The notes under the pieces: generated by a model | Seen by the model: the letters and a program-made list of their open reading frames with translations, nothing else | Database searches by the model: none | What the model was told of the DNA's origin: nothing | Shown here: positions 1,524 through 3,806 of the stretch, piece after piece | Layout of the letters: every line of letters begins with the position of its first letter | How positions within the stretch are numbered: the first letter of the stretch is position 1 | Source: Escherichia coli | Lineage (GTDB): Bacteria > Pseudomonadota > Gammaproteobacteria > Enterobacterales > Enterobacteriaceae | DNA: 3,806 nt | Strand: one strand, 5' to 3' | NCBI RefSeq assembly: GCF_003334255.1 | Contig: NZ_QOWU01000114.1 | Program-made: the position numbers and the translations under genes

Positions 1524-3806
1524 TCTTGTTATTGACCTGTGTCTGGATGCGGTCCGTTTCGATGAGCAGATGAGCCGGGTAAGGCGTCATTTTTCAGGTC
1601 TGGATACTGACGCCAGAAAAACCGCAACTGTCGTTGAGCAGGGGCTGAGCCGCCAGGCGCTGGCTGCACAAAAAGCAGGGATTTCCGTCGGGCAGTATAA
1701 AGCGGCCATGCGAACCCTGCCCGCACAGTTTACGGATATCGCCACGCAGCTTGCCGGTGGTCAGAATCCCTGGCTGATCCTGCTGCAACAGGGCGGTCAG
1801 GTGAAGGACTCCTTCGGCGGGATGATCCCCATGTTCAGGGGGCTTGCCGGTGCGATCACCCTGCCGATGGTCGGGGTCACCTCGCTGGCGGTGGCGACAG
1901 GTGCGCTGGTGTACGCCTGGTACCAGGGAGATTCCACGCTTTCAGCGTTTAATAAAACCCTGGTTCTTTCCGGTAATCAGTCCGGACTGACTGCCGATCG
2001 CATGCTGACGCTCTCCAGAGCCGGACAGGCCGCAGGGCTGACGTTTAACCAGGCGAGTGAGTCACTGGCAGCCATGGTGAATGCCGGTGTGCGTGGTGGT
2101 GAACAGTTTGATGCCATCAACCAGAGTGTCGCGCGTTTTGCTTCTGCATCCGGTGTGGAGGTGGACAAGGTTGCAGAGGCTTTCGGAAAACTGACCACTG
2201 ACCCGACGTCGGGGCTGATTGCGATGGCGAAGCAGTTCCATAACGTGACGGCGGAGCAGATTGCGTATGTTGCTCAGTTGCAGCGTTCCGGCGATGAAAC
2301 CGGGGCATTGCAGGCGGCGAACGAGGCCGCAACGAAAGGGTTTGATGACCAGACCCGCCGCCTGAAAGAGAACATGGGCACGCTGGAGACCTGGGCAGAC
2401 AGGACAGCGCGGGCATTCAAATCCATGTGGGATGCGGTGCTGGATATTGGTCGTCCTGATACCGCGCAGGAGATGCTGATTAAGGCAGAGGCTGCGTTTA
2501 AGAAAGCAGACGACATCTGGAATCTGCGCAAGGATGATTATTTTGTTAACGATGAAGCGCGGGCGCGTTACTGGGATGATCGTGAAAAGGCCCGTCTTGC
2601 GCTTGAAGCCGCCCGAAAGAAGGCTGAGCAGCAGAGTCAACAGGACAAAAATGCGCAGCAGCAGAGCGATACCGAAGCGTCACGGCTGAAATATACCGAA
2701 GAGGCGCAGAAGGCTTACGAACGGCTGCAGACGCCGCTGGAGAAATATACCGCCCGTCAGGAAGAACTGAACAAGGCACTGAAAGACGGGAAAATCCTGC
2801 AGGCGGATTACAACACGCTGATGGCGGCGGCGAAAAAGGATTATGAAGCGACGCTGAAAAAGCCGAAACAGTCCGGCGTGAAGGTGTCTGCGGGCGATCG
2901 TCAGGAAGACAGTGCTCATGCTGCCCTGCTGACGCTTCAGGCAGAACTCCGGACGCTGGAGAAGCATGCCGGAGCGAATGAGAAAATCAGCCAGCAGCGC
3001 CGGGATTTGTGGAAGGCGGAGAGTCAGTTCGCGGTACTGGAGGAGGCGGCGCAACGTCGCCAGCTGTCTGCACAGGAGAAATCCCTGCTGGCGCATAAAG
3101 ATGAGACGCTGGAGTACAAACGCCAGCTGGCTGCACTTGGCGACAAGGTTACGTATCAGGAGCGCCTGAACGCGCTGGCGCAGCAGGCGGATAAATTCGC
3201 ACAGCAGCAACGGGCAAAACGGGCCGCCATTGATGCGAAAAGCCGGGGGCTGACTGACCGGCAGGCAGAACGGGAAGCCACGGAACAGCGCCTGAAGGAA
3301 CAGTATGGCGATAATCCGCTGGCGCTGAATAACGTCATGTCAGAGCAGAAAAAGACCTGGGCGGCTGAAGACCTGCTTCGCGGGAACTGGATGGCAGGCC
3401 TCAGGTCCGGCTGGAGTGAGTGGGAAGAGAGTGCCACGGACAGTATGTCGCAGGTAAAAAGTGCTGCCACGCAGACCTTTGATGGTATTGCACAGAATAT
3501 GGCGGCGATGCTGACCGGCAGTGAGCAGAACTGGCGCAGCTTCACCCGCTCCGTGCTGTCCATGATGACAGAAATTCTGCTTAAGCAGGCAATGGTGGGG
3601 ATTGTCGGGAGTATCGGCAGCGCTATTGGCGGGGCTGTTGGTGGTGGCGCATCCGCGTCAGGCGGTACAGCCATTCAGGCAGCTGCGGCGAAATTCCATT
3701 TTGCGACCGGAGGATTTACGGGAACCGGCGGCAAATATGAGCCAGCGGGGATTGTCCACCGCGGGGAGTTTGTCTTCACGAAGGAGGCAACCAGCCGGAT
3801 TGGTGT
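1504..3806 (+). CDS. H: Tail tape measure protein (lambda gpH-like), 3'-partial (about 767 codons in window)
   Basis: ATG at 1504 with a GGAGG ribosome-binding site. The frame is uninterrupted to the window edge; it is absent from the ORF track only because no stop falls in the window. Translation [111 protein letters not shown]... matches my recollection of lambda gpH. It has a long charged alpha-helical middle and a Gly-rich hydrophobic segment near the end of the window. Confidence 0.95.
   Translation, partial: [767 protein letters not shown]
3550..3690 (+). other. Gly/Ala-rich hydrophobic (transmembrane-like) segment within the tape measure protein
   Basis: Direct translation gives [47 protein letters not shown]. 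This is a long apolar, small-residue stretch of the kind found in the C-terminal part of siphovirus tape measure proteins. Confidence 0.6.

Follow-up and report, generated by a model that had tools for sequence, protein, structure and literature searches.

Assignment of a Gly/Ala-rich segment in an Escherichia coli prophage to the probable cleavage region of the lambda-type tape measure protein gpH

The tail block V-G-T-H of a lambdoid E. coli prophage constituted the content of the window (the whole stretch of DNA analysed, 3806 nt). Judged by its sequence, the segment at nt 3550-3806 is residues 683-768 of gpH, a lambda-type tape measure protein. The preliminary description of this DNA had placed it in the C-terminal region of a siphovirus tape measure protein and had overlooked that it is the known glycine-rich cleavage region of gpH. 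The segment was read as a helix, a cleavage hinge and the start of a conserved core, with the resulting end of gpH* acting at the membrane, and this reading was considered fairly likely. The finding was real but ordinary; both the cleavage region and a weak transmembrane prediction are already in the literature. The segment was identical at the amino acid level to part of a phage protein that ranks among the best studied, and the window itself matters little.

An open reading frame starting at nt 1504 on the plus strand ran through 767 open codons to 3806 in the frame 1 translation and continued past the window edge; its stop was expected at about 4065, outside the window. The genes and main features of the locus were as follows.

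1..633, plus strand: 3' part of gene V, tail tube protein with a C-terminal Ig-like domain (Pfam and annotation of L002, a near-identical prophage)
652-1083, plus strand: tail assembly chaperone G (open reading frames and annotation of L001 and L002)
652..1523, plus strand: chaperone G-T, with the T frame extending to 1523 (open reading frames and annotation of L001 and L002)
1059-1065, plus strand: slippery heptamer G GGA AAG (GGGAAAG) of G-T (direct reading of the sequence)
1504..3806, plus strand: gene H, tail length tape measure protein gpH, codons 1-767 of 853 (translation and lambda match)
1663..2271, plus strand: TMP_2 domain (PF06791), aa 54-256 of gpH (Pfam E = 3.9e-69)
3382..3606, plus strand: Tape_meas_lam_C domain (PF09718), aa 627-701 of gpH (Pfam E = 1.6e-21)

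The product of gene V matched Phage_TTP_12 (E = 3.1e-56) and Big_2 (E = 7.6e-19) in Pfam. The gene order V-G-T-H-M-L-K-I-J was found in L002, with M, L, K, I and J downstream of H, and was shared with lambda, which presumably carries the same G-T slippery heptamer. The whole window had 86.6% nucleotide identity to lambda, which placed H on lambda gene H. The gene differed from its lambda counterpart in being mosaic, with 68-88% nucleotide identity to about position 2200 and 96-100% onward, and the flagged segment was unaffected. The identity of gpH was established by phmmer, in which lambda gpH (PDB 8iyk, chain H) matched over the full length, and by the model TIGR01541 (tape_meas_lam_C), which scored 424.8 bits against a cut-off of 104.75 over aa 472-813 and covered the flagged residues. 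Lambda gpH (NP_040595; PDB 8IYK/8IYL/8K35, 9E7M) belongs to the same family and has the same length of 853 aa, and its residues 683-768 (86 residues) were 100% identical to those encoded here. Scattered substitutions occurred in the last ~70 residues of gpH, as seen in the near-identical prophage only. The peptides quoted for nt 3550-3806 were exact, with codon 683 at nt 3550 (TCC, Ser) and the last GT opening a Val codon. Their assignment to the C-terminal region of a siphovirus tape measure protein was borne out by the lambda match, phmmer, Pfam and TIGR01541. An antisense open reading frame of 172 aa at 3156-3674 was set aside as probably no more than the frame commonly seen opposite G+C-rich genes, and the plus strand explained the region fully. 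An RNA element was ruled out, as the Rfam scan of the window returned no family at its gathering score.

The last 85 residues of gpH were read from L002, which differed from the window at 4 of 3806 bases, and not from the window. Positions 4505-7066 of L002 held a complete H gene encoding 853 aa, of which 85 residues lay beyond the window; the segment was thus indeed near the C-terminal region. Past the window edge, the protein continued with the remainder of the conserved core, followed by a variable linker and a predicted C-terminal helix (818-849) that would dock on gpI. Residues 819-849 of the L002 protein matched chain 9e7m_Ha (E = 2.4e-7), and a helix was predicted by AF2 at 820-842. In lambda, cryo-EM modelling showed the C-terminal helix (818-842/849) as a coiled coil of three chains seated on gpI, the plug of the tail tip. 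Extension to the stop codon and an HMM search had been proposed for embedded enzymatic domains, and none was found. The 853-aa protein matched TMP_2 and Tape_meas_lam_C only in Pfam and TIGR01541 only in NCBIfam, by which an embedded enzyme downstream of the window was rejected. No lysozyme, transglycosylase, M23 or NlpC/P60 domain was detected in gpH by Pfam, NCBIfam or the fold search. With Foldseek, the AF2 model of gpH had no match in the PDB and, among the named matches with E < 0.1 in viral models, matched tape measure proteins only; the blank result was weak evidence because the model was of modest quality (mean pLDDT 66, pTM 0.27). Some tape measure proteins, such as that of mycobacteriophage TM4, embed a peptidoglycan hydrolase domain in their C-terminal part. 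This gpH differed from the TM4 type in that no hydrolase domain was detected.

The first part of the segment had been described as Gly/Ala-rich and hydrophobic. Two stretches of gpH were relevant to this claim.

3574..3690, plus strand: uncharged Gly/Ala-rich stretch, aa 691-729 (composition, run length, shuffles, pLDDT and literature)
1849..1923, plus strand: N-terminal hydrophobic segment, aa 116-140 (19-residue Kyte-Doolittle peak, KD19, of 1.83 at 118-136)

Gly and Ala each made up 26% of aa 691-729, compared with 9% and 15%, respectively, in the whole of gpH, and aa 695-729 formed the longest run of gpH free of D, E, K and R (35 aa). The membrane propensity was gauged by Kyte-Doolittle windows, a crude Hessa-scale sum and shuffles. 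In 5000 shuffles of gpH, an uncharged run of at least 35 residues occurred in 1.1% and a content of at least 20 Gly plus Ala per 39 residues in 2.4%, whereas a KD19 peak of at least 1.53, the value observed at 696-714, occurred in 32%. Therefore, the uncharged Gly/Ala character went beyond chance and the hydropathy peak alone did not. The last helix of the PF09718 domain reached into the flagged segment, and AF2 extended it over 672-709. A hydrophobic helix, the absence of which would have counted against the description, was thus predicted in this region. The pLDDT fell below 50 at 702-721, where the Gly-rich part was predicted to be disordered. The Gly/Ala stretch was weakly hydrophobic, and its transmembrane character was weak.

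A true transmembrane helix at 691-713, which would oligomerise through its GxxxGxxxG zipper and form the membrane-spanning part of the DNA channel, is the strong form of the preliminary description and was regarded as unlikely. The longest uncharged run of gpH, the pattern G705xxxG709xxxG713 readable inside the Gly/Ala-rich stretch and the extension of the AF2 helix to 709 were consistent with it. Moreover, 691-712 was called transmembrane by some predictors, and gpH* was resistant to protease in liposomes (PMC12617516). However, the hydropathy peak lay below the usual cut-off of 1.6 and was not above chance for the composition, and the 19-residue Hessa insertion sum was +4.4 kcal/mol, a rough, position-independent value. 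The Gly-rich part also varied in length and sequence among relatives and did not precede the GG-containing motif in the P2-like tape measure protein of a Mannheimia phage. Of the two transmembrane candidates of gpH, that at aa 116-140 is the stronger and is preferred in the literature; the prediction for 691-712 was termed "much less confident" (PMC12617516).

The cut that converts lambda gpH into gpH* and gpHC during tail maturation falls in the glycine-rich region (PMC12617516). The Gly/Ala stretch at 691-729 is probably the region of this cleavage, and the maturation cleavage was expected in the present protein because the segment is identical to that of lambda. The calculated mass of residues 1-710 was 78.0 kDa, which fits gpH*, and that of residues 711-853 was 14.7 kDa. 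By experiment, gpH* has been linked to membrane penetration, and it forms at least a major part of the trans-envelope channel, according to protease resistance in LamB liposomes and a channel seen by cryo-ET (PMC12617516). The membrane-interacting, injection-related role proposed for the segment was accordingly upheld in part; the membrane role of gpH* (PMC12617516) and the AF2 helix at 672-709 spoke for it, and the weak transmembrane character spoke against it.

In the preferred reading, the segment would comprise three elements. The first would be the last helix of Tape_meas_lam_C (~672-702), which is moderately hydrophobic, and the second an uncharged, flexible hinge rich in Gly, Ala and Ser (~702-729). 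The third would be the first part of a small folded core (733-786), located at the N-terminus of gpHC. During tail maturation, gpH would be cut in or beside the hinge. The larger product, gpH* (~78 kDa, residues 1 to ~710-730), would fill the tail tube, and the other product, gpHC (~13-15 kDa), would be held by its far C-terminal helix (818-849) as a trimeric coiled coil on the gpI plug at the tail tip. Upon receptor binding, the tip would open and gpHC would move aside together with gpI. Subsequently, gpH* would be expelled and would become the trans-envelope conduit for DNA. After the cut, gpH* would terminate in the hydrophobic helix and the glycine-zipper-like stretch; we infer, by analogy with T5 pb2*, that this new C-terminal end may leave the tube first and anchor or insert at the outer membrane close to the mouth of the tail, possibly through 691-713. 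Because the lambda cut has been placed only regionally, the hydrophobic stretch could instead fall to gpHC. The weak transmembrane propensity of 691-713, on which the published predictors disagreed, also speaks against this reading, as does the tentative placement of the N-terminal segment rather than the C-terminal end in the outer membrane (PMC12617516). Mapping the cleavage site and the protease of gpH would show how a siphophage tail switches from a ruler to a DNA conduit.

The analogy with T5 was drawn from the order of the parts. In pb2, as in gpH, a helical ruler is followed by a hydrophobic uncharged stretch, a maturation cleavage and a small C-terminal piece, which ends in ~35 residues that assemble on the tip plug as a trimeric coiled coil. 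In T5, the cut follows R1127 and separates a 46-residue hydrophobic stretch from the C-terminal domain; this stretch of pb2* has been proposed to insert into the outer membrane. The two proteins differed in that the 46-residue stretch of T5 fits two transmembrane helices, whereas gpH had one weak candidate; the hydrophobic part before the cut region was ~19-23 residues long (KD19 1.53), short of two helices, and was followed by the Gly/Ala/Ser run. After the cut, AEGG...EHGTEVV in T5 and ATGG (734-737)...VHRGEFV in lambda resembled each other by eye only. A profile of the 48-sequence alignment A1 found no significant domain in pb2 by hmmsearch, and its hhalign comparison with pb2C gave a probability of 0.6%; a single protein was found as a relative of pb2C for profile-profile comparison. 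The analogy was therefore architectural only, since no sequence homology to pb2 was detectable.

A reading without any host-membrane role was thought rather improbable. The helix would then be a site for the G/GT chaperones or a packing surface in the tube, and the Gly/Ala part a spacer or hinge. This reading agrees with the position of the G and G-T chaperone genes immediately 5' of H, and with a low-complexity linker that was predicted to be disordered and was poorly conserved in sequence. It also agrees with phage TP901-1, whose tape measure protein resembles gpH in having internal hydrophobic regions and an essential C-terminal part of ~60 residues that touches the tip; those hydrophobic regions were judged likelier to recruit chaperones than to insert into membranes (PMC5099701). 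The TP901-1 protein is of another family (TP901 core) and has mid-protein hydrophobic regions of three predicted spans each, and genetic evidence in that phage favoured chaperone recruitment (PMC5099701). On the other hand, the reading leaves unexplained why an uncharged hydrophobic segment stands just before the cut in both lambda and T5, and gpH* does enter membranes (PMC12617516).

The second part of the segment, described as a conserved GG-containing motif, was the beginning of a core of ~54 residues, and its conservation was confirmed.

3700..3806, plus strand: conserved core, aa 733-786, first 35 residues and a partial codon (conservation profile; cut by the window edge at aa 768)
3757..3768, plus strand: His752-Arg-Gly-Glu755 (invariant columns H84 and E87 of alignment A1)

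The core had the consensus FAxGG[FY][11 protein letters not shown][IV]VHxGE[FY]VFTKEATxRIGVxNLYxxMRGYAxGG. Positions 733-786 were 70-99% conserved among 95 representatives, each of which shared less than 70% identity with the query across the C-terminal segment that was aligned, and were the most conserved part of the C-terminal module. The pattern G[IV]VH.GE[FY]V was present in all 97 full-length top matches, with a median distance of 110 aa to the C-terminus in the 97 full-length representatives, and in most of these an uncharged run rich in Gly, Ala and Ser (median 27 aa) preceded it. His752 and Glu755 were invariant in A1. The looser pattern G.VH..E.V was found in 136 of 150 representatives; its H-x-x-E tetrad was HRGE, HKGE, HGGE or HAGE in 132 of these and HKDE, HAEE or HRRE in the other 4. 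A beta-hairpin and two short helices were predicted by AF2 at 739-776 (pLDDT ~80). Neither a dedicated Pfam model nor a solved structure nor an assigned role existed for the core, and a full-text literature search for the letter strings of the motif returned unrelated papers only, mostly on primers and epitopes.

It was judged very unlikely that the core binds metal or is catalytic and either cuts gpH in the hinge or acts on the cell wall, in the manner of the Zn-peptidase motif of T5 pb2C. The invariant His and Glu do have the H-x-x-E spacing of the T5 motif EHGTE, they lie in the most conserved part of the C-terminal module, and no protease has been assigned to the gpH cut in the literature (PMC12617516). 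Against it, no match to any enzyme was obtained in Pfam, NCBIfam or the fold search, the profiles showed no similarity to pb2C, and ~54 residues would be very small for an enzyme. A Zn-carboxypeptidase pattern after PROSITE PS00132 matched pb2 at 1135-1157 and was found in none of the 150 representatives and not in this gpH. The metallopeptidase motif of pb2C has reported muralytic activity, and lambda virions were reported to be without muralytic activity, with none known for gpH (PMC12617516).

The distribution of the core bears on the same question. The core region was detected in 975 phage records by tblastn and in 5089 clusters at E <= 0.001. The core itself occurred in more than 1000 protein clusters and was nearly identical across T1-like and lambda-like siphophages, a P2-like myophage and an actinobacteriophage (an Arthrobacter phage). 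The tail tips of the P2-like and Arthrobacter carriers are without lambda-type partners, no tail-tip partners are common to all these phages, and some tape measure proteins had 2-4 tandem copies of the core. The occurrence without lambda-type partners and the tandem copies argue for an intrinsic function of the core. An autonomous, portable tape-measure module that might bind metal through His752 and Glu755, cleave the hinge of its own protein or act on the envelope was nevertheless considered quite doubtful; alternatively, the core may be a lambda-specific docking piece only. Few short elements of tape measure proteins are conserved as widely as this core motif, which extends over different tail types and host phyla.

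The segment at window 3550–3806 is the C-terminal processing region, already known from the literature, of a lambda-type tail tape measure protein, gpH (residues 683–768), and is identical in amino acids to that of phage lambda; which protein it is and how it is laid out were shown in the present analysis. The window carried four plus-strand genes, namely the 3' part of the tail tube gene, G, T and a long ORF.

Features of the window
to 633, plus strand: tail tube gene V, 3' part
361–633, plus strand: Big_2 Ig-like domain ending the tail tube protein (V fragment aa 122–200; Pfam E = 7.6e-19)
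652–1083, plus strand: tail chaperone gene G
1059–1065, plus strand: slippery heptamer G GGA AAG, in the zero frame of G, 18 nt before the G stop
to 1523, plus strand: T, the −1 frameshift extension of G
1504 to past the window end, plus strand: long ORF (gene H)
1849–1923, plus strand: second hydrophobic uncharged segment, gpH aa 116–140 (19-residue Kyte-Doolittle window, KD19, 1.83)

The heptamer is a programmed −1 frameshift yielding the G–T chaperone fusion, and lambda presumably carries the same heptamer, GGGAAAG. The Rfam search of the window returned no family match. In the megablast search of phage genomes, lambda 9072–12841 (genes V, G, T and H) matched the whole window at 86.6% identity. 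The nucleotide identity to lambda was mosaic: it was 68–88% over window 1–2200, covering V, G, T and the initial third of H, and 96–100% from approximately 2200 to the end, implying that recombination has left a junction within gene H, around window 2200–2250. The Big_2 end of the tail tube protein was the part most diverged from lambda (68% at window 401–600). Among complete E. coli genomes, many prophages were 100% identical to the last 807 bases of the window, and the prophage of E. coli ATCC 25922 differed from it at 4 of 3806 positions. The sequence beyond the window was taken from this prophage, not from the window itself; the extended ORF ended at codon 853, the length of lambda gpH, and was followed by homologues of M, L, K, I and J. 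A 172-aa antisense ORF (3156–3674, minus strand) overlapped the 3550–3806 segment and was set aside as an unsupported reading frame. At least one 'Campylobacter phage' record, CJLB-4, also gave a full-length match; its identity equalled that of lambda, the genome position was similar, and the genes bore the names H/V/G/T, so that it seems to be lambda, or else a lambdoid sequence, filed under the name of another host. A13a, approximately 20 more 'Campylobacter' records and one 'Xanthomonas' record matched as well.

The two peptides quoted in the preliminary description were exactly reproduced by translation, with codon 683 beginning at nt 3550 and the final V read from the last two window bases only (GT). 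The first peptide had been called Gly/Ala-rich and hydrophobic. Residues 691–729 contained 26% Gly and 26% Ala, and the longest charge-free stretch of the protein was located at 695–729 (35 aa). When the protein was shuffled 5000 times, a charge-free run of this length arose in 1.1% of the shuffles and an equal Gly+Ala enrichment in 2.4%, whereas the KD19 peak of 1.53 was attained in 32%. Hence, the stretch is genuinely Gly/Ala-rich and uncharged but only moderately hydrophobic. The N-terminal segment 118–136 scored higher (KD19 1.83 vs 1.53). Some programs call a transmembrane segment at 116–140, which the literature prefers as the candidate, and another, 'much less confident', at 691–712 (PMC12617516). 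The segment is thus flanked by the weaker of the two hydrophobic candidates of gpH. One alternative is that the stretch forms a genuine transmembrane pore helix, for which its hydropathy is weak. The earlier reading as a membrane-interacting region was partly right: it held for the C-terminal region of a tape measure protein and only weakly for the transmembrane character. The stretch could also be a mere chaperone-binding or spacer segment, as has been argued for TP901-1 (PMC5099701).

According to the literature, gpH is cut in its glycine-rich region into gpH* (about 78 kDa, roughly residues 1–710) and gpHC, and gpH* forms at least a major part of the periplasm-spanning channel (2025 Ur-lambda study, PMC12617516). 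The computed masses were 78.0 kDa for residues 1–710 and 14.7 kDa for residues 711–853, which fits these products. Hence, the segment corresponds to the known processing region of gpH.

The order of elements was identical in gpH and in pb2, phage T5's tape measure protein. In the latter, cleavage follows R1127 and separates a 46-residue hydrophobic stretch from a C-terminal peptide that has a metallopeptidase motif and a terminal coiled coil on the plug. The post-cut T5 sequence AEGG...GEHGTEVV superficially resembled lambda ATGG...VHRGEFV, and H-x-x-E was present in both. However, profile searches detected no homology between the C-terminal module of gpH and pb2, and the Zn-carboxypeptidase signature, which we take to be PROSITE PS00132, was matched by pb2 but not by gpH. 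Moreover, muralytic activity is reported to be absent from lambda virions. Therefore, the resemblance is one of architecture and not of family membership.

Domains and predicted structure of gpH (residues)
54–256: TMP_2 (Pfam)
472–813: TIGR01541 (NCBIfam, four times its cut-off)
627–701: Tape_meas_lam_C (Pfam)
672–709: helix (AF2 model)
702–721: disordered stretch (AF2 model, pLDDT under 50)
739–776: small beta-hairpin and two short helices (AF2 model, pLDDT about 80)
between 739–776 and 820–842: poorly predicted linker (AF2 model)
820–842: helix coinciding with the cryo-EM coiled coil (AF2 model)

Lambda gpH is present in PDB 8IYK, 8IYL, 8K35 and 9E7M, where the model is limited to residues 818–849, which form a trimeric coiled coil on the gpI plug; residues ~690–817 are not resolved (PMC12617516). 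The AF2 model was built from 48 diverse C-terminal segments (mean pLDDT 66). The fold search with this model gave no match in the PDB, and among the named matches with E below 0.1, the viral models gave tape measure proteins only. The Pfam search gave no domain past residue 701 of the 853-aa protein. As another alternative, the conserved core (residues 733–786) may be a module that binds metal or is catalytic, but no enzyme-like match was found; the concern that an enzymatic domain lay downstream can be dropped, since none appeared in the Pfam, NCBIfam or fold searches. PDB chain 25vf_5 is a tape measure protein of 612 aa with a solved structure; the helix 'TTGK-SF-DFA-S...ARIAARQ', which corresponds to gpH 671–700, is repeated in it three times or more, but the chain had no GG...VH.GE.V core.

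The most likely course is as follows, with inference covering where exactly the cut falls, how the membrane is contacted and what the core does. The helix at ~672–702 would close the ruler part of gpH, and processing would occur at the flexible uncharged hinge, ~702–729. The gpHC product, which combines the conserved core with the terminal helix, would be seated on gpI in the tip lumen. Upon LamB binding, the tip would open, gpHC and gpI would shift aside, and gpH* would leave the tail and build the conduit. If T5 is a guide, anchoring at the outer membrane is probably the task of the newly formed C-terminus of gpH*, which is hydrophobic and glycine-zipper-like (G705xxxG709xxxG713).

The conserved GG-containing motif of the preliminary description was borne out, as part of an extremely conserved core. 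Residues 676–853 were searched against 1.84 billion representative proteins, and 5089 clusters were obtained at E <= 0.001 (1045 at E <= 1e-10). Among the best 150, G[IV]VH.GE[FY]V occurred in 97 of 97 full-length proteins, and its median distance to the C-terminus was 110 residues. Among 95 sequences less than 70% identical to the query across the aligned C-terminal segment, positions 733–786 were 70–99% conserved, and the Gly/Ala stretch varied in sequence and length. The invariant residues of the 48-sequence alignment include G736, G737, T739, G740, G742, G749, V751, H752, E755 and V757. Furthermore, tblastn gave 975 matches in 50,697 phage records; in most records sampled across the ranking, the match was limited to a 32-residue piece (745–776, 78–90% identity), found in T1-like coliphages and Klebsiella phages. 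Hence, the motif is a real and very widespread module without an assigned function. Among PDB sequences, the core was found in none besides lambda gpH. Two further tape measure proteins, one from a P2-like Mannheimia myophage (4451–7363) and one from Arthrobacter phage ArV2 (4298–7924), which has a Gram-positive host, carried the 32-residue core at 77–78% identity; lambda-type tip proteins were absent from both. No hydrophobic or Gly-rich stretch preceded the motif in the Mannheimia protein, and in ArV2, the core was 301 residues from the C-terminus, compared with the usual 110 or so. Multiple copies of the motif were present in 7 of the 97 full-length representatives (six with two, one with four). 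Among metagenomic tape measure proteins, the GG...VH.GE.V motif was tandem in P0071 and P0075 (two copies each) and in P0035 (four copies, 54–58 residues apart).
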